NCBI GenBank assembly: GCA_030583785.1
Contig: CP129475.1
Location: forward strand, 95,559-159,558
Direction of reading: 5' to 3'
Length of the DNA: 64,000 bases
Source of the DNA: Candidatus Dojkabacteria bacterium
GTDB lineage: Bacteria > Patescibacteriota > Dojkabacteria > B142 > OLB20
Under the pieces are notes generated by a model that ran no database searches, had not been told where the DNA came from, and saw nothing but the letters and a program-made list of their open reading frames with translations. Every line of letters begins with the position of its first letter. Position 1 is the stretch's first letter. Of this stretch, positions 9,125-48,956 are shown one piece after another. Both the position numbers and the translations under genes were made by a program.

Positions 9125-10420
9125 ATGAAAAACGCACAAACATTAAAAGGATTCAGAGACTTTATCGGCCAAGATTATAAACAACGAACAAACATTTTCA
9201 GACTATTTGAGGAGATATTTGGTAAGTATGGTTACGAAGGTATTCAAACTCCGGCACTAGAATATGCGCACATTCTTTTAGATAAATACGGAGAAGACGA
9301 AAAACTCGTCTACAAATTCGTTGACCATGGAGGTAGAGAAGTGGCAATGAGATATGACCTCACTGTTCCAACGGCAAGAGTTCTAGCGCAACATCGAGCC
9401 AAAATACAGTTGCCTTGGAAGCGCTATCAACTTCAGCCTGTTTGGAGAGCAGATAACACACAAAAAGGAAGATTCAGAGAATTCTATCAGTTAGACATCG
9501 ATGTTTTTGGCAGTAGTTCCTATCTAGTTGAAGTTGAGATGCTTCTTATTGGTTCGGAAGTATATTCAAGGCTAGGATTTGCAGATTATGCTGCCAGATT
9601 AAACTCCAGGCAGATTCTGAACGCAATTGTTGAGTACGCAGGCAGAAAAGATGATTTCAGCACAATTGTAACGATTATCGATAAATGGGATAAAAGAACA
9701 AAAGAAGAAACAAAGGCTGATCTATTAGATAAGCTAAGTAACAACGAGGAGGCTGTTGCCAAGATTATGCAATGTGTAGAACTTCAAGGAAGCAACTCTG
9801 AAAAAATATCGGCGCTTAAAGAAATACTCGGCAATATCATCGGTGCACAAGAGTCCTTAGCTGAAATCGAAAAGATAATTAGTTATTCCGAGAAACTCGG
9901 GAACAATAAAGTTATTTTTGATCCTACTATTGCCCGTGGACTTAGCTACTATACAGGTCCTGTTTGGGAATGGGAGATTAATGAAGGTAATGTTGGATCA
10001 GTTGGTTCTGGTGGAAGATACGACAATCTTGTTGCCTCAATCGGTGGAGAAGACACTCCTGCCTGTGGTCAATCTTTTGGTATAGAAAGGATATTAGAGG
10101 TCATGTCAGATAGGGGTATGCTTTCCAGTCAAATTCAAAGCGATTTAGTCCTAATCACCTTTCTAGATAATGAGGCAGAGGTTGTTTCTCTGGAAGTAAT
10201 GAAAGAACTGCAGGCAATCGATATAAGAACTGTAGTCTATACTGGAACAGACAAACTGCCGAAACGCTTTAAATATGCCGAAGATATTGGCGCTAGCTGG
10301 GTTGTGCTAATCGGTAGCAACGAGATTCAAGCAAATACACTTACAATAAAGAATTTAGTGAGCAAAGAGCAGGTAGAAATTCAGCGTTCAGAATTAGCAT
10401 CATATTTTGTTTCTAATTGA
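9125..10420 (+). CDS. hisS: histidyl-tRNA synthetase
   Basis: Class IIa motifs are present: KGFRDF, RYDLTVPTAR (motif 2 region), GGRYDNL (motif 3) and a C-terminal anticodon-binding domain. Length is 431 aa. Confidence 0.92.
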   Translation: MKNAQTLKGFRDFIGQDYKQRTNIFRLFEEIFGKYGYEGIQTPALEYAHILLDKYGEDEKLVYKFVDHGGREVAMRYDLTVPTARVLAQHRAKIQLPWKRYQLQPVWRADNTQKGRFREFYQLDIDVFGSSSYLVEVEMLLIGSEVYSRLGFADYAARLNSRQILNAIVEYAGRKDDFSTIVTIIDKWDKRTKEETKADLLDKLSNNEEAVAKIMQCVELQGSNSEKISALKEILGNIIGAQESLAEIEKIISYSEKLGNNKVIFDPTIARGLSYYTGPVWEWEINEGNVGSVGSGGRYDNLVASIGGEDTPACGQSFGIERILEVMSDRGMLSSQIQSDLVLITFLDNEAEVVSLEVMKELQAIDIRTVVYTGTDKLPKRFKYAEDIGASWVVLIGSNEIQANTLTIKNLVSKEQVEIQRSELASYFVSN

Positions 10421-10475: not shown

Positions 10476-11114
10476 ATGAGTAAAAAAGTAGTTTTACTAG
10501 TAGTTGGTCTGTTACTCTTTTGTTGTCTTGTAAGTTGCTGTTTGATCTTCTCCTTACCGCTTCTATCTCCAGATCTTGCCAAACAGCTCAACATTGAAAC
10601 AACATTCGATTCAAATTTTGATCTAAGCGAATTCGGACTGGGTACAAACACGAACACAAACACAACCACTCCGAGTAATGAGGAGCAAAAGTTCACTCAT
10701 GCAACCTTGGGTTTTTCGATTATTGTTCCAAAAACATGGCAATTTGAAGAAGATTCAACTTCAGCTGTATTTTATTCGCCAGAAGAAGATGCGTTCATTA
10801 CTTTTGAGGCCTTCAGCGATGGTGAAACAACAGGCAGGGTTGATGTTAACCAAACATTCTGCGATGAATTTGGCGAGGGCTTTAGATCGGGTCTTCCAGC
10901 TGAAACAGAAGGAATTGGCTACTTTGATTTTAAATCCTTCAATCTAAACGGTAATGCAGGATGCAGAGCAGAGGGCGAAATCTTCGGACAAAGTCAGAAG
11001 TATTATGTATTCTACAATAACTCTAATTCAAAATATTACTCAATCTTTTACACGATTAGTTCGGAAGCTGATAAAGCAGCTGTATCAAAATATATGGATA
11101 CCTTGTCATTCTAG
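10476..11114 (+). CDS. secreted hypothetical protein (paralog family with GFSIIVPKTW domain)
   Basis: Signal/TM N-terminus, TNTNTNTTTP low-complexity linker, then LGFSIIVPKTWQFEE domain similar to 5601-6380 and 6388-7101. Confidence 0.55.
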   Translation: MSKKVVLLVVGLLLFCCLVSCCLIFSLPLLSPDLAKQLNIETTFDSNFDLSEFGLGTNTNTNTTTPSNEEQKFTHATLGFSIIVPKTWQFEEDSTSAVFYSPEEDAFITFEAFSDGETTGRVDVNQTFCDEFGEGFRSGLPAETEGIGYFDFKSFNLNGNAGCRAEGEIFGQSQKYYVFYNNSNSKYYSIFYTISSEADKAAVSKYMDTLSF

Positions 11115-11134
11115 TTATCAGGGTTAGTACTTTT

Positions 11135-11170
11135 GAAGCCCCGCCTTGAAAAGGCGGGGCTTCTTGTTAC
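11135..11170. terminator. hairpin between convergent genes (likely bidirectional terminator)
   Basis: GAAGCCCCGCC-ttgaaaa-GGCGGGGCTTC is a perfect 11-bp stem, followed by a T-rich tract on the plus strand. It lies between the 10476-11114 (+) ORF and mnmA (-). Confidence 0.6.
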
Positions 11171-12240
11171 TTTATTATGCCGCTTCCGAGACAGGTTTGT
11201 TGATCATAAAAGACAATGCTTTGACCTGATGCAATGCCTCTTTGAGGAGAATCGAAACGAAAATGCTCGTTATTTATAAATGTTCCCGATGCTGCCTTTT
11301 GTCTGTATCTAATAACAGCTTGAATATGACTTTCGGGTGTTATTGTCTCAGAGATATAATTTATATTTTCGAAATACACATCCTTGGCAAACAAAGCTGG
11401 ATGATCTTTACCCATAGCCACTAGAAGTTCGTTGTTTGGCACATCTTTATAAGCTACAAAGTAGGGTACTTTTGCTCCACCAATTTTTAAGCCCTCTCTT
11501 TGCCCGATAGTATAAAAGAACACCCCATCGTGCTCTCCGAGTATCTTTCCCGTATCAAAATCTTTTATCACGCCTTTTTGTTGTTTAATTTCTTTCCTAA
11601 GGAACTCTTTTACATTGATTTCACCAATAAAGCAGATTCCTTGGCTATCTGGTTTATTGGCAACGAGCAATTTATTATCATTGGCAATTTGTCGGATTTC
11701 TGGCTTAGTATATGATCCTATAGGAAAAAGGCTCTTAGATAACTGTTCTTGGGTAAGCTGGCATAGAAAGTAGCTTTGGTCTTTATTTTCGTCTACCCCT
11801 TTTTGAAGTTGATATAGGTTTTCCTGTTTTGTTACTCTCGCATAGTGTCCAGTTGCAATAAGATCTGCTCCCATGCTTATTGCTTTATCCAGAAATAATG
11901 AGAACTTGATCTCTTTATTACAGACAATATCCGGATTTGGAGTTCTTCCGGCTCTAATCTCGCTAAAGAAGTAATTTACAACCTTATCACGATATTCTTT
12001 TTCGAAATTAAAGGACATGAAAGGAATATCTAGTTGCCCACAAACTGCCTCAACATCTTTCTGATCTGTCTCCCAAGGGCAATCTGCCTGAAGACCATAG
12101 TCATCACCTGACCAGTTCTTCATAAATACCCCAGTAATGTTAAACCCTTGTTGTTTAAGGAGCAGTGCGGCAACAGAACTGTCGACACCACCGGACATGG
12201 CTACGAAAACTTTTGTTTTACTGTTATCTTGATTTTGCAT
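11167..12240 (-). CDS. mnmA: tRNA-specific 2-thiouridylase MnmA
   Basis: PP-loop VFVAMSGGVDSSVAA. The conserved MnmA core and the C-terminal cysteine (CFIGE) region are present. Confidence 0.9.
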   Translation of the reverse strand: MQNQDNSKTKVFVAMSGGVDSSVAALLLKQQGFNITGVFMKNWSGDDYGLQADCPWETDQKDVEAVCGQLDIPFMSFNFEKEYRDKVVNYFFSEIRAGRTPNPDIVCNKEIKFSLFLDKAISMGADLIATGHYARVTKQENLYQLQKGVDENKDQSYFLCQLTQEQLSKSLFPIGSYTKPEIRQIANDNKLLVANKPDSQGICFIGEINVKEFLRKEIKQQKGVIKDFDTGKILGEHDGVFFYTIGQREGLKIGGAKVPYFVAYKDVPNNELLVAMGKDHPALFAKDVYFENINYISETITPESHIQAVIRYRQKAASGTFINNEHFRFDSPQRGIASGQSIVFYDQQTCLGSGIIK

Positions 12241-13376: not shown

Positions 13377-13805
13377 ATGAAAAGAATTAACCTGCTTTTG
13401 TTTGGGAAAATAAAATCTTCAGAATATATTAACCTGTTTAACTACTATTTAAAGCTATCGTCAAAATATTATTCTGTTAGCACAATTACAAAAAAAGATC
13501 CGAACAGGCCAATTCAACTGCAAGATATTCCGACTTATTCAAGCAGCGTTTACCTATTGACCGAGCAAGGTAAGCTCTATGACACCTTTCAATTTTCAAA
13601 TTTAGTCAACAATCAAGATTCAGGTAATGAATTGACCTTTATTATTGCATCGGCTTTTGGTTTTGATAGATTAGTTCTGGAGAGTAGATATCAATTACTA
13701 TCATTGTCGCCAATGACTTTTAACCACGAAATGGCGGCGGTGGTTCTAGTCGAGCAACTGTTTCGTGTCGGGAATTATGCAAACGGAGGTAGCTATCATA
13801 AGTAG
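13377..13805 (+). CDS. rlmH: 23S rRNA (pseudouridine1915-N3)-methyltransferase RlmH
   Basis: 142-aa SPOUT-fold protein. The C-terminal FGFDRLV...LSLSPMTFNHEMAAVVLVEQLFR matches the RlmH knot region. Confidence 0.8.
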   Translation: MKRINLLLFGKIKSSEYINLFNYYLKLSSKYYSVSTITKKDPNRPIQLQDIPTYSSSVYLLTEQGKLYDTFQFSNLVNNQDSGNELTFIIASAFGFDRLVLESRYQLLSLSPMTFNHEMAAVVLVEQLFRVGNYANGGSYHK

Positions 13806-14011
13806 GGCTTGCAAGATTCTTTGGCTTGAGTTAATATTCTCATAAGAGAGTAGCTCTATCGGTGCAAGGCTACAAAAAGAATAGGTGACATAATTAAATA
13901 TCTTATCCGAGTGTCTGTTGGCAAAGCTAACAGGAACAAAGGTGGTACCGCGCTTTTAGCGTCCTTCATATTATATGAATGGCGCTTTTTTTATTTTTTA
14001 GAAGTATCGTT
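13806..14011 (+). promoter_or_regulatory. T-box-like riboswitch leader upstream of aspS
   Basis: The leader contains AGAGAG (13844-13849, Stem I GA motif) and the T-box core AGGTGGTACCGCG (13939-13952). A terminator hairpin GCGTCCTTCATAT/ATATGAATGGCGC with a T7 run follows just before the ATG at 14012. Confidence 0.6.
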
Positions 14012-15799
14012 ATGGAAAGAATCCTTGCTAGTAATCTAAAGGAGAGAATTGGTGAAAAAATAAGTGTCAGAGGATGGCTGCAAAATTCGCGAATAATGGG
14101 TAAGCTTGCCTTTCTGGTTATCAGAGACAGAACTGGCCTTGCTCAGATCGTAATTGAGAATCAAGATACAATTAAAATGATCAGTCCGCTGCAACCTGGC
14201 TCTGTAATATATGTGTCTGGGGTTGTCAGCGAGAACGAAAAGTCTGGATTAGGAGTAGAGATTATTAATCCAGAGATTTCTATTGTCTCAAAAGTTACAG
14301 AATCCATGCCGTTAGAAGTGAATAAGGAGGATTTAAACGCACATATTGATACGATTCTTGACTATCGACCTCTTAGTCTCAGAAACCTAAAAATACAAGC
14401 TGTGTTCAAAATACAGGCAACTCTGGTGAGGGCGTATAGAGAGTATTTAACAAATCTTGGATTTACAGAATTCTTTGGTCCAAATATTATCGGAGCATCT
14501 TCCGAGGGTGGAGCAGAGTTATTTAAGGTTGACTATTTTGGATCAGATGCCATGCTTTCGCAGAGTGCTCAGCTATATAAACAGATAGCCGTAGGCGCTT
14601 ATGAGAGAGTTTTTGCGCTTATGAAATGTTATAGAGCAGAGAAGTCAAACACCAGAAGACACTTAACAGAAGCAACACAATTTGAATTTGAAATGGGTTT
14701 TATTGATGACTTCTCGGAGGTAATGGATATGCTTGAAGGAGTTGTTAAGTCTATGATCAGTGAAATTGCGACCAATAACGATCAAGAGTTAAAGTTGCTT
14801 GGCGTTAGCCTTGCCCTTGCTCCACAAGATATCGCATTCCCAAGGGTAACTTTTAAAGATGCTTTACAGATATTCTTTGAAAGAACGGGAATAGACGAGA
14901 GAGGCGAGATAGATCTTTCACCACAGGCAGAAAAGGAGTTGTGTGCATATGCCCGTGAGCAGTTCGGAACGGATTTTATCTTTGTAACTCATTTTCTCAG
15001 AAAGAAAACGGCCTTCTATGCTAAACCGAATGAAGATAATCCAGAAGTGACAAATTATTTCGATCTGCTCTGCAGGGAAATCGAGATTGTAAGCGGTGGT
15101 CAAAGAATTAACGATCATGATGAACTTGTTGAGTCATTAAAGCTAAAAGGTCTTAACCCAGACAGTTTCCAAGATTACTTGTCCATATTTAAATTCGGTA
15201 TGCCTCCACATGGAGGTTTTGGTATGGGTATGGAAAGATTCACAATGATGGCTCTAGGTCTAGATAATATCCGAATGGCGACTCTGTTCCCTTCAGACAC
15301 AAGAAGAATTGCTAGCGTTAAGAGGCAAGAAAAAATTTATATAGGTGCAGAACTGGGAAGGAATATATTAAAAAGGCTTGATGCCTACAATACTACTTAT
15401 CGTGTGGTTGAACATGAGCCTGTTACTACTTCTGAAGAGGCGGCAAAGGTTAGAGGAACAAGTATTGAAGATGGTATTAAGGCCCTAATATTAAGGAATA
15501 AGAAAAGTGGTGAAAATATAATGGTTTGTATCCCCGCCAACGATAAGGTCGATTTTAATCAATTAGCAGTATTTACCGGTGCTAAATTCGAATTTGAAAG
15601 CAAAGAGGTTATTGCAAGTAAATACGCACTTGAAGCAGGCGGTATCCCACCATTTGGTAATCTGATGGGTTTAAGGGTCATTTTCTCAGATAAGATTAAG
15701 CAACTCGAAACGATTGCTTTTAATAACGGATCGTTGAGCTCTTCGGTCATTATGTCAGCAAAGGATCTGATAGATACGGTAGATCCTGAATTCTTCTAA
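14012..15799 (+). CDS. aspS: aspartyl-tRNA synthetase (archaeal/eukaryotic class IIb type) fused to a C-terminal YbaK/ProX-like aminoacyl-tRNA deacylase domain
   Basis: The synthetase part carries the N-terminal OB anticodon-binding domain, QSAQLYKQ, motif 2 YRAEKSNTRRHLTEATQFEFEM and motif 3 GGFGMGMERF. The C-terminal 150 aa (YRVVEHEPVTTSEEAAK...GGIPPFG...) align to YbaK-type deacylases. I moved the start to the ATG at 14012 because the upstream ATG lies inside the terminator hairpin. Confidence 0.8.
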   Translation: MERILASNLKERIGEKISVRGWLQNSRIMGKLAFLVIRDRTGLAQIVIENQDTIKMISPLQPGSVIYVSGVVSENEKSGLGVEIINPEISIVSKVTESMPLEVNKEDLNAHIDTILDYRPLSLRNLKIQAVFKIQATLVRAYREYLTNLGFTEFFGPNIIGASSEGGAELFKVDYFGSDAMLSQSAQLYKQIAVGAYERVFALMKCYRAEKSNTRRHLTEATQFEFEMGFIDDFSEVMDMLEGVVKSMISEIATNNDQELKLLGVSLALAPQDIAFPRVTFKDALQIFFERTGIDERGEIDLSPQAEKELCAYAREQFGTDFIFVTHFLRKKTAFYAKPNEDNPEVTNYFDLLCREIEIVSGGQRINDHDELVESLKLKGLNPDSFQDYLSIFKFGMPPHGGFGMGMERFTMMALGLDNIRMATLFPSDTRRIASVKRQEKIYIGAELGRNILKRLDAYNTTYRVVEHEPVTTSEEAAKVRGTSIEDGIKALILRNKKSGENIMVCIPANDKVDFNQLAVFTGAKFEFESKEVIASKYALEAGGIPPFGNLMGLRVIFSDKIKQLETIAFNNGSLSSSVIMSAKDLIDTVDPEFF

Positions 15800-47387: not shown

Positions 47388-48956
47388 TTAAATTATTGAT
47401 CTGAGTCTATTAATATATTTCTCTTTATCTTTTGCCACGGCATCTTTTAATAGCCAGCCTGCTTTTGGTCCGTGGTTTTTTCCGATTAATGAAATGTATA
47501 TTGCTGCAAATGCTTCTTTTGTCTGTATGCCTGTTGATTTTGCGAGTTCAAAAATGGCTTGTTGAAGCTCTTCGCCTTCAGCAAAGTCTTTCGTGCTTAA
47601 CATATCTGCTAGTAGACCTAAGAATCCAAGCTGGCTTTCAGAAAGTTCATTTACTTGAGTTGGCGTTTCTTCTGCTAAGTTAAACTTTTCGGTATCAGCA
47701 GCAAATCTCTCTAACCATAATTTTGCATAAACAACTCTTTCGTCTAATAATTCTATTTCTAGTGCACTTAAGCTAGATCCTTTTTCATTTGAGAAATGAT
47801 CCCGCAAGTTGACTGATGGCATTTGCACAAGTGTAGCAACTGTCCTAAATCTTGGTAAAAAAGTAGGTTCAATTTTGTCTTTGTTTATTTGTGCTGCTTG
47901 AAAATATCTGCCTTGATCAGTTTCGGTTCCTGTTTCAAAGAAAGCTTTGGCACAGCGGTCATATTCATCAAACAAATCCGGAATTGTGTTACTGATATTT
48001 GGGTCAAAGTTAATTGCTCGCTGATAAGGTGTTCTAACATGTAAGAATCGACCAATCTGAGGTGGAAGGATTTTTACAAACTCTGCAGCAGATGTGGCAT
48101 TACCTTTTGACGAAGACATTTTTGCTCCACCGATCAAAAGAAACTCGTGTAAAAATCCGAAAGGAGGATCAGTTTTAAATACATCTTTAATTACTTCGGC
48201 GGCAATGTATCTTGATCCGCCCTTGCTGAAATGGTCTTTGCCGGCGCCTTCGATTGAAATATTCATAGCTGCCCAATGTGCAGGCCAGTCTACTTTCCAC
48301 ATCAACTTACCTGTTCCGCCAAAAGGAGAAATTCTTCCTTTATGCCCACAGCCCTTTGTCCATTCAACTAAGTTTTCTTCGCAGCTGTATGTAACAAGTT
48401 CACCGTCCCAATCTGTGACAAGGCTTGTTCCTACCTTCCCGCACTGAGGACATATAACTTGGAACGGATACCAGCCTTCTGGTTTCGTTTGTCCTGCAAC
48501 TTTCTTGTAAATATTTCTTATTACTTCGACCTCATCGAGTGCCATGCGAATATATTTATCTATTTGTCCTTGTTTATAAAGATCAGAAGATTTGTGTATC
48601 TCTGGTTTAAACCCAAGTGTGTTAAAAGCAGAAATATATTCGTTCGCATAAAACATAGCAAAATTTTCTGCTTTACCATCAGGGGAAGGAATTGAGTTAA
48701 GAGGTTTTCCCATGTGCTGCTCGTACACAGTCTTATCTAGGTATACCGGAAGACCGTCCATAGGATCCATATCATTGATCACATATGTAAAATCAACATT
48801 ATAACCGGCATCTTTTAATGCTTCGTAGATCAGACCATGTGTAGCAATAGCTCTAAGCGATCCGGCATGTGCATGTCCGGATGGGGTTTTCATATCATCG
48901 ACTCGGTAATTATTTGATTTGTCGAAGTTCTCTAACAGTTTGTCAGCCCAGTACAT
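47388..48956 (-). CDS. lysK: class I lysyl-tRNA synthetase (archaeal type)
   Basis: HIGH-like TPSGHAHAGSLR and KMSKS variant KMSSSKG. Zn/Cys region (CPQCGKVGT...CGHKG). 522 aa. The architecture matches class I LysRS rather than class II. Confidence 0.8.
   Translation of the reverse strand: MYWADKLLENFDKSNNYRVDDMKTPSGHAHAGSLRAIATHGLIYEALKDAGYNVDFTYVINDMDPMDGLPVYLDKTVYEQHMGKPLNSIPSPDGKAENFAMFYANEYISAFNTLGFKPEIHKSSDLYKQGQIDKYIRMALDEVEVIRNIYKKVAGQTKPEGWYPFQVICPQCGKVGTSLVTDWDGELVTYSCEENLVEWTKGCGHKGRISPFGGTGKLMWKVDWPAHWAAMNISIEGAGKDHFSKGGSRYIAAEVIKDVFKTDPPFGFLHEFLLIGGAKMSSSKGNATSAAEFVKILPPQIGRFLHVRTPYQRAINFDPNISNTIPDLFDEYDRCAKAFFETGTETDQGRYFQAAQINKDKIEPTFLPRFRTVATLVQMPSVNLRDHFSNEKGSSLSALEIELLDERVVYAKLWLERFAADTEKFNLAEETPTQVNELSESQLGFLGLLADMLSTKDFAEGEELQQAIFELAKSTGIQTKEAFAAIYISLIGKNHGPKAGWLLKDAVAKDKEKYINRLRSII

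Follow-up and report, generated by a model that had tools for sequence, protein, structure and literature searches.

Evidence for a T-box leader with a reduced Stem I upstream of the aspartyl-tRNA synthetase gene of Candidatus Dojkabacteria

A stretch of 64,000 nucleotides (64 kb) from Candidatus Dojkabacteria contig CP129475.1, hereafter called the window, was analysed around aspS, the gene of an aspartyl-tRNA synthetase (AspRS). This gene (14012-15799, forward strand, ATG at 14012) is separated from rlmH (13377-13805, forward strand, stop codon at 13803-13805) by a spacer of 206 nt (13806-14011, forward strand). A preliminary description made from the sequence alone had proposed a T-box-like leader in this spacer, and had stressed the interest of T-box control of an archaeal-type AspRS in a genome resembling those of the Candidate Phyla Radiation (CPR). 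Both propositions are upheld by a match to the Rfam T-box family RF00230, by 15 leaders with covarying helices, by an invariant GAY triplet and by a UGGC bulge. The evidence supports a genuine T-box leader, with mutually exclusive antiterminator and terminator folds and a GAC specifier, that controls aspS in a CPR genome. We estimate at roughly 70% the probability that the spacer is a transcription-attenuating T-box riboswitch tuning the expression of a non-discriminating AspRS to the charging of tRNA-Asp. The element is assigned to the T-boxes because the discriminator, the tRNA-elbow platform and the specifier are all present; the kink-turn (K-turn) and the specifier loop were not found and the Rfam threshold was not reached. 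Its design appears reduced, the elbow platform and the 3' sensing domain being kept and the lower half of Stem I lost.

The T-box core AAGGUGGUACCGCG lies at 13939-13952, exactly as first described. Its 12-mer GGTGGTACCGCG has a single occurrence in the window, for an expectation of 0.02 even when one mismatch is allowed. Searching with the RF00230 covariance model yielded a significant match at 13816-13969 (41.5 bits; E = 5.4e-8 over 401 nt and 8.6e-6 over the whole window), yet below the gathering score, and this was the sole cis-regulatory match in the window in a permissive Rfam search. The AG bulge, the distal helix with its loop, an AGUG string, Stem III and the antiterminator were aligned by Rfam with high posterior probability. 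The alignment was forced or showed deletions at the K-turn, the AGUA/GAA S-turn, the lower helices of Stem I and Stem II, whose 40 positions are deleted.

Loci were gathered through AspRS homologues from species-representative genomes, metagenomes and assemblies. Fifteen distinct leaders with the same element order, besides near-duplicates, were found directly upstream of aspS (the window, L001, L002, L003, L004, L009, L077, L081, L082, L090, L093, L129, L130, L132 and L133). All belong to Dojkabacteria and all precede a gene coding for a fusion of AspRS with a YbaK domain. The AspRS proteins of these loci are 59-65% identical to the query, and the neighbouring genes vary among loci. The leaders were aligned under the guidance of covariance models (alignments A5 and A6) combined with per-sequence parsing; whole-leader alignments by MAFFT misaligned Stem III and the 3' arms of antiterminator helix A2 and were not used for covariation. 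Over the 15 leaders, 91.3% of the alignment cells were paired and 11 of the 13 pairs showed compensatory changes; the specifier stands at the same place in all of them. The covariation score was 0.592 versus 0.255 for shuffled alignments (none of 500 reached it), and slid controls were paired at 16-55%. The same helices were found independently by RNAalifold.

The 3' half of the leader is a textbook T-box discriminator according to the description in PMC7583486. The purine string GAGUG (RRRxG; 13909-13913) is followed by a Stem III of 9 bp (13914-13922 with 13926-13934, loop AAA), by a trailing AA (13935-13936) and by the antiterminator (13939-13966), all on the forward strand. Within the latter, helix A1 (AAGG/CCUU; 13939-13942 with 13963-13966) is 100% paired in the 15 leaders, the 7-nt T-box bulge UGGUACC occupies 13943-13949, and helix A2 (GCGCU/AGCGU; 13950-13954 with 13958-13962) shows compensatory changes at 4 of 4 pairs. 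Of 14 leaders, 13 have a Stem III hairpin in the homologous position; the summed free energy is -117.7 kcal/mol versus -59.6 kcal/mol for shuffled sequences. The purine string reads RRRxG in most leaders and YUGAG in the subgroup formed by L001, L009 and L090. The first four bases of the bulge are UGGC in 13 of the 15 leaders and UGGU in the window and L081. UGGC is complementary to G73-C-C-A, the G73 having been verified for E. coli tRNA-Asp alone.

An intrinsic terminator (13958-13999, forward strand) is made of a hairpin at 13958-13986, a U-tract at 13987-13992, an A and a run of UUUUUU. Its arms GCGTCCTTCATAT (13959-13971) and ATATGAATGGCGC (13973-13985) are directly followed by TTTTTTT (13986-13992). 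The preliminary description had correctly noticed that a hairpin and this run of T follow the core and overlap the T-box sequence. The overlap concerns the antiterminator, whose 3' half serves as the 5' arm of the terminator; this arm begins 5 nt before the 3' strand of A1. Folding confirmed that the two structures are mutually exclusive and that the antiterminator carries the UGGU bulge. In the window the terminator is the minimum-energy fold at -16.5 kcal/mol versus -5.4 kcal/mol for the enforced antiterminator, a difference of 11.1 kcal/mol, and it was more stable by 7-20 kcal/mol in 10 of the 10 leaders computed. The regulatory logic predicted from these energies is default-OFF. The minimum-energy fold of the entire spacer gave a misleading long-range structure (z = -1.9) and was set aside.

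Some peculiarities of the 3' half were observed in the leader of L081 (WS6 OLB20; 9914-9982). Stem III is nearly absent there. Its terminator has a 3' arm, CAGGUGGCGCU, that could form 9 of 10 pairs with the 3' strand of the antiterminator. The same arm is also perfectly complementary, over 11 bp, to AGCGCCAUCUG upstream of the T-box, a pairing that would enclose the entire antiterminator; L098, a metagenomic locus, is similar.

The 5' half is much shorter than in canonical leaders. The preliminary description had located an AGAGAG at 13844-13849 and had read it as the GA motif at the base of Stem I. The motif is indeed present, one position further on (13845-13850), and its role has to be revised: both the Rfam alignment, with high posterior probability, and the consensus in PMC7583486 identify AGAGA (13845-13849, forward strand) as the AG T-loop, the first half of a distal platform for the tRNA elbow. 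In the T-boxes described in PMC7583486, this interdigitated double T-loop platform stacks on the tRNA elbow and has the consensus AGAGA and UGxRA. The AG T-loop is kept in all leaders as AGAGA, AGCGA, AGCAA, AGUAA, AGGAA or AGUGA. It is followed by the distal Stem I helix P1 (13850-13873, forward strand), whose 6 bp join GUAGCU (13850-13855) to GGCUAC (13868-13873) around a loop of 12 nt. The end of this loop is the second T-loop, UGCAA (13863-13867, forward strand), which conforms to UGxRA in all leaders. All 5 modelled pairs of P1 change on both sides across the 15 leaders, RNAalifold recovers the helix, and the helix test gave 78 versus 49 +/- 3.4 for shuffled sequences (none of 500 reached it). 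At the level of sequence and secondary structure, a distal double T-loop platform is recognisable.

Upstream of the AG motif, promoter elements are the sole features conserved, and they point to a promoter made of a -35 box TTGCAA (13809-13814) and a -10 box TAATAT (13832-13837), both on the forward strand and spaced by 17 nt. In 10 of 14 leaders, plus L133, the pattern TTGnnn-17-TAnnnT occurs with its end 6-9 nt ahead of the AG motif. Shuffled upstream regions gave 0.17 such leaders on average and at most 3, and slid anchors gave 0-1. The four leaders without a TTG -35 box carry an extended -10 element TGnTAnnAT instead. A simple promoter scan missed this leader promoter, which scores 8 of 12. 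The usual distance between the -10 box and the start is 6-8 nt; judged from this spacing, transcription would probably start at about 13842-13845, at the AG motif. In L082 and L132 the upstream gene is divergently transcribed, and therefore the promoter must lie in the spacer.

A start at the AG motif would leave no 5' strand for the proximal part of Stem I, and we looked for the missing pairing in the family. In 14 leaders, complementarity between the 12 nt upstream of the AG motif and the linker that follows P1 was 57 versus a shuffled mean of 62.3, and extending the upstream segment to 40 nt gave 81 versus 78.7. Complementarity of these 40 nt with the 25 nt after GAY was 87 versus 90.6, and that of the linker with the tract after GAY was 64 versus 64.3, which supports no hairpin around GAY. 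Wherever transcription starts, none of these values is in excess of chance, whereas P1, taken as positive control, gave 78 versus 49; among the 14 leaders no K-turn (GA motif) was found at the base of Stem I. It could be objected that the leader is an ordinary full-length T-box, transcribed from further upstream, for instance by read-through from rlmH, whose diverged proximal Stem I with specifier loop and K-turn was overlooked by the alignment. The Rfam alignment covers model positions 1-219 and pairs 13835-13839 with 13878-13882; a 6-bp UAUUCU/AGAAUA helix is possible in the window taken alone; and rlmH lies on the same strand as the leader with no terminator found between them, so that read-through could carry upstream RNA. 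These observations count against a reduced design. Nevertheless, the UAUUCU/AGAAUA pairing used by Rfam overlaps the conserved -10 box and is itself not conserved, RNAalifold predicts no proximal helix, and the Rfam 5' alignments of L003 and L004 contradict each other. The promoter that the divergent genes of L082 and L132 place in the spacer sits precisely at the AG motif. We consider a full-length leader improbable. Because proximal complementarity is at the level of chance and the pairing used by Rfam overlaps the -10 box without being conserved, we conclude that the leader probably has no K-turn, S-turn, specifier loop or lower stem.

Downstream of P1 lies a purine-rich linker (13874-13884, forward strand), single-stranded in that it shows no excess complementarity and no predicted helix; in the family it measures 7-13 nt, counting the GU that follows. 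It leads to GU-GAC-A (13885-13890, forward strand), in which GU is invariant and GAC (13887-13889), an Asp codon, is the candidate specifier. The preliminary description had already singled out a GAC triplet followed by A; this choice is supported by the orthologous leaders once the triplet is moved from 13886-13888 to 13887-13889. Its placement in the middle of Stem I does not hold, as the triplet lies 3' of the short platform hairpin and has no conserved pairing partner. GUGA is invariant in the 15 leaders and the next base is C in 13 of them and U in 2 (L003 and L133), which gives GAC or GAU, both Asp codons. The specifier position is assigned through this conservation, and the codon matches AspRS in all 15 leaders. 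No conserved helix encloses or flanks GAY in these leaders, be it with the codon in a side bulge with an S-turn or in an apical loop of Stem I, and we infer that the Asp codon is presented from a single-stranded segment. In canonical leaders, a helical 3' strand of an estimated 18 nt or so spans the distance from the platform to the anticodon. The 7-13 nt of linker are plausibly long enough to reach from the base of the 6-bp platform hairpin to the anticodon.

The pentamer 5'-GUGAC-3' is complementary to nucleotides 34-38 of E. coli tRNA-Asp (GUCAC; anticodon loop CUGUCAC). In tRNAs that read codons starting with G, A37 carries no bulky modification, which makes such an extended pairing feasible. 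The comparison suggests that extended GUGAC pairing with tRNA-Asp could compensate for the lost scaffolding. After the specifier, an A/U-rich tract (13891-13908, forward strand; consensus ACAAUUAAAUA) is single-stranded and stands where Stem II and the IIA/B pseudoknot would be expected. It contains invariant adenine columns, the Stem II positions are deleted there by Rfam, and no helix is predicted over 13890-13908. The conserved adenines next to GUGAC may likewise help to make up for the lost scaffolding.

The enzyme being non-discriminating, it charges tRNA-Asn besides tRNA-Asp, and its NCBIfam name is aspartate--tRNA(Asn) ligase. This raises the question of whether an AAY triplet in a conserved ACAAY, located 1-4 nt after GAC, acts as a second or alternative specifier sensing tRNA-Asn also or instead. 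A two-codon T-box is known on the operon of the tRNA-dependent Asn pathway in Clostridium acetobutylicum. Both adenines of the AAY in ACAAY are invariant, and about 10 of the 15 leaders have AAC or AAU. About one third of the leaders, however, lack U or C in the third position, A or G being found there in L009, L090, L093 and L002, and in the window the motif reads AUAAU. Moreover, the tract is A-rich, AAY is expected there by chance, and the flanks have no extended complementarity to the anticodon loop of tRNA-Asn. We hold a role of AAY as specifier to be very unlikely.

Taken in order along the RNA, a tRNA-Asp sensor of this design could work as follows. The sigma-70 promoter TTGCAA-17-TAATAT would start the RNA at about 13844, at the AG motif. 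The first 30 nt or so would fold into the 6-bp hairpin, and AGAGA and UGCAA would form the double T-loop platform on which the tRNA elbow docks. GAC (13887-13889), 13 nt further on in the unpaired purine-rich linker, would pair with the GUC anticodon, and the invariant GU may prolong this pairing to A37 and C38. As the RNA would have no 5' strand for the proximal Stem I, the K-turn, the S-turn and the specifier loop would be absent, as would Stem II. When the tRNA is uncharged, its 3' GCCA would pair with UGGU (UGGC in most relatives) and stabilise the weak antiterminator, letting the polymerase enter aspS. Otherwise the terminator (13958-13986 and the U-tract), 11 kcal/mol more stable, would form and transcription would stop. 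It remains a tentative proposal, and one that we regard as more doubtful than the T-box assignment itself, that this is the first natural T-box to work without K-turn and specifier loop, whose RNA begins at the platform, whose codon sits in an unstructured tail and in which five-base GUGAC pairing makes up for the missing parts.

Several observations weigh against the spacer being a functional tRNA-Asp sensor. At the RF00230 gathering score of 93 nothing is reported for the window, its 41.5 bits being less than half of that value, and only 2 of 7 orthologs reach E < 0.01 with Rfam; orthologs score 31-36 bits or go undetected. No tRNA-Asp gene was found in the collected Dojkabacteria loci. Directly 3' of the specifier, opposite U33, 12 leaders have A, 2 have C and 1 has U; the purine held to be functionally critical at this place is not conserved. 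The UGGU of the window requires a U-G wobble with G73. In the literature, a conserved G-U wobble at the base of A2, next to the T-box bulge, is described as the steric sensor of the 3'-aminoacyl group; this pair (13950/13962; columns 135/186 of A6) is G-U in the window and G-C in 5, A-C in 4, G-U in 3 and A-U in 3 members of the family. The A-C cases may be isosteric wobbles. Finally, no second T-box with a different codon at the GAY position, which would prove the specifier position, was found in the scanned loci.

The distribution of the element was examined with R1, a covariance model built from six of the leaders. R1 gave exactly one match per T-box-bearing locus in 362 kb, and no match near hisS, gltX, proS or second class IIb aminoacyl-tRNA synthetase genes in these loci. 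In the window itself, neither hisS (9125-10420) nor the class I lysS (47388-48956) has a T-box-like leader according to Rfam and R1 searches. The element is absent from three more distant Dojkabacteria (L005, L083 and L085; AspRS identity 51-57%), and 73 loci of Chlamydiae and other phyla with the same AspRS-YbaK fusion gave 0 matches to R1 in 444 kb. Such a restricted occurrence could mean that the leader is a decaying relic, in which the discriminator and the terminator serve as a constitutive attenuator or one answering to another factor, while the anticodon is no longer read and GUGAC is kept for another reason. In favour of this reading, the element occurs on aspS alone among the genes sampled (hisS, lysS, gltX and proS are without it), the more distant Dojkabacteria have lost it, and features considered essential, namely the K-turn, the specifier loop, a conserved 3' purine and a conserved G-U sensor pair, are all missing. 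On the other hand, the platform motifs, GU-GAY, the purine string, UGGNACC and all helices are maintained with compensatory changes across AspRS identities of 59-65%, the substitutions in the triplet are synonymous only, and UGGC is specific for a tRNA with G73. The maintenance of these tRNA-contacting elements implies purifying selection on the whole tRNA-binding apparatus, and we judge a relic to be unlikely.

A pattern scan of metagenomes returned 35 loci that were mainly chance matches in coding DNA, with only 3 redundant Dojkabacteria leaders, and a T-box-core match at L081:15582 turned out to be the start of the murA coding sequence. T-box-like leaders were also observed in three metagenomic loci (L098, 1102-1223, reverse strand; L128, 3317-3394, forward strand; L122, 3414-3510, reverse strand), upstream of a bacterial-type AspRS of 581 aa, with R1 scores of 42-45 bits. 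Their promoter is a perfect TTGACA-17-TATAAT, and no more than about 20 nt of RNA precede GUGAC-A. A canonical discriminator with a UGGC bulge is present; the AG motif and the platform hairpin are missing altogether, and a possible UUUCG...CGAAA stem would put the codon in a large loop. In L118 (2062-2188, reverse strand), a GUGAC-A...UGGUACC leader with a terminator lies upstream of an archaeal-type Asp/AsnRS of 450 aa without YbaK (R1 31 bits).

The host belongs to Candidatus Dojkabacteria (WS6, CPR/Patescibacteria) and has a G+C content of about 37%. The gene order around the leader is mnmA (reverse), DUF3179 (reverse), rlmH (forward), the 206-nt spacer, aspS (forward), mraZ and rsmH. The aspS product, 100% identical to a Candidatus Dojkabacteria protein, combines an archaeal-type non-discriminating AspRS (aa 1-433) with a C-terminal tRNA_edit domain of the YbaK/ProX type (aa 468-588), and matches NF003483 (499 bits), PF00152, PF01336 and PF04073. 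Fusions of AspRS with YbaK (PF04073) are also common in environmental Chlamydiae and in metagenome-assembled genomes under the labels Legionella, Verrucomicrobia and others, with identities of 48-53%. The role of an editing domain on an enzyme that makes Asp-tRNA(Asn) on purpose is puzzling.

In two of the Dojkabacteria without the T-box (L083, 11797-13799; L085, 11802-13597), a second class IIb aminoacyl-tRNA synthetase of about 430 aa without YbaK is encoded just downstream of aspS. In L083 a tRNA-Asn(GUU) gene (12095-12166) stands between the two. Such a second gene beside aspS was not seen in the sampled T-box-bearing lineages. The window also codes for a class I archaeal-type LysRS (PF01921; 47388-48956, reverse strand) and a HisRS (9125-10420, forward strand). 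A gene of the Trp_repressor family occurs in the same neighbourhood in L081 and L129, directly upstream of hisS in L081. A weak match to RF01770, the gammaproteobacterial rimP leader, at 11102-11202 (forward strand; 30.2 bits for a gathering threshold of 47, E = 0.71) lies across the 3' end of mnmA, which is encoded on the other strand, and probably reflects chance.

Among known systems, the glyQS-type leaders (class I without Stem II; glyQ or glyQS of Bacillus, Geobacillus and Oceanobacillus) share terminator/antiterminator attenuation and the AGAGA and UGxRA platform. They likewise have neither Stem II nor the IIA/B pseudoknot, a single-stranded linker leading to Stem III, and the canonical discriminator (RRRxG, Stem III, AA, then A1-UGGNACC-A2). 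Their Stem I, however, is long and two-stranded, with a basal K-turn, and the specifier is housed by an internal loop that has an S-turn and a stacking purine. The Dojkabacteria leaders appear to have no 5' strand below the AG T-loop, where the predicted promoter lies, and to carry the codon in an unpaired 3' tail with a variable 3' purine and an invariant GU. The canonical tyrS-type leader (RF00230) aligns well over the T-box sequence, the antiterminator bulge, Stem III, the AG bulge and the distal loop, whereas its K-turn, AGUA/GAA S-turn, lower Stem I and Stem II positions are deleted or forced in the Dojkabacteria leader.

A naturally reduced Stem I with the same discriminator core, evidence that Stem I is modular, is also found in the translational ileS T-box of Actinobacteria, with its short or ultrashort Stem I (Sherwood et al. 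2015 and structures 6UFG and 6UFM, as cited in PMC7583486). The ileS form drops the distal platform, keeps the K-turn, the apical specifier loop and Stem II, and acts on translation. The Dojkabacteria leader is reduced in the opposite sense: its platform remains, its K-turn, specifier loop and Stem II are gone, and it would act on transcription. T-boxes have been reported in Firmicutes, Actinobacteria, Chloroflexi, Deinococcus-Thermus and a few Proteobacteria and none in Chlamydiae; Patescibacteria/CPR are not among the T-box phyla listed (PMC2494555), and the TBDB paper makes no mention of CPR lineages. A search of the literature, limited to the library available and no proof of absence, found no paper linking T-boxes with CPR/Patescibacteria. 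Within this literature, both the phylum and the Stem I architecture are new for a T-box, and this reduced design had not been described before.

The Dojkabacteria leaders mirror the reduction seen in Actinobacteria, since they retain the platform and have lost the decoding stem, and they sharpen the view of Stem I as a set of separable modules. The Rfam gathering threshold misses all of this T-box family, which means that surveys of T-boxes favour the architecture of Firmicutes. For engineering tRNA-responsive switches, a minimal sensor consisting of a platform and a tail would be useful. If the proposed mechanism is true, a tRNA sensor would need no more than a discriminator, a 5-mer and a platform hairpin some 30 nt long. 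Patescibacteria have minimal genomes and few known regulators. The present element places T-box regulation among them, and, if the mechanism holds, T-boxes would be ancestral to, or have spread through, Patescibacteria, unseen by current models.

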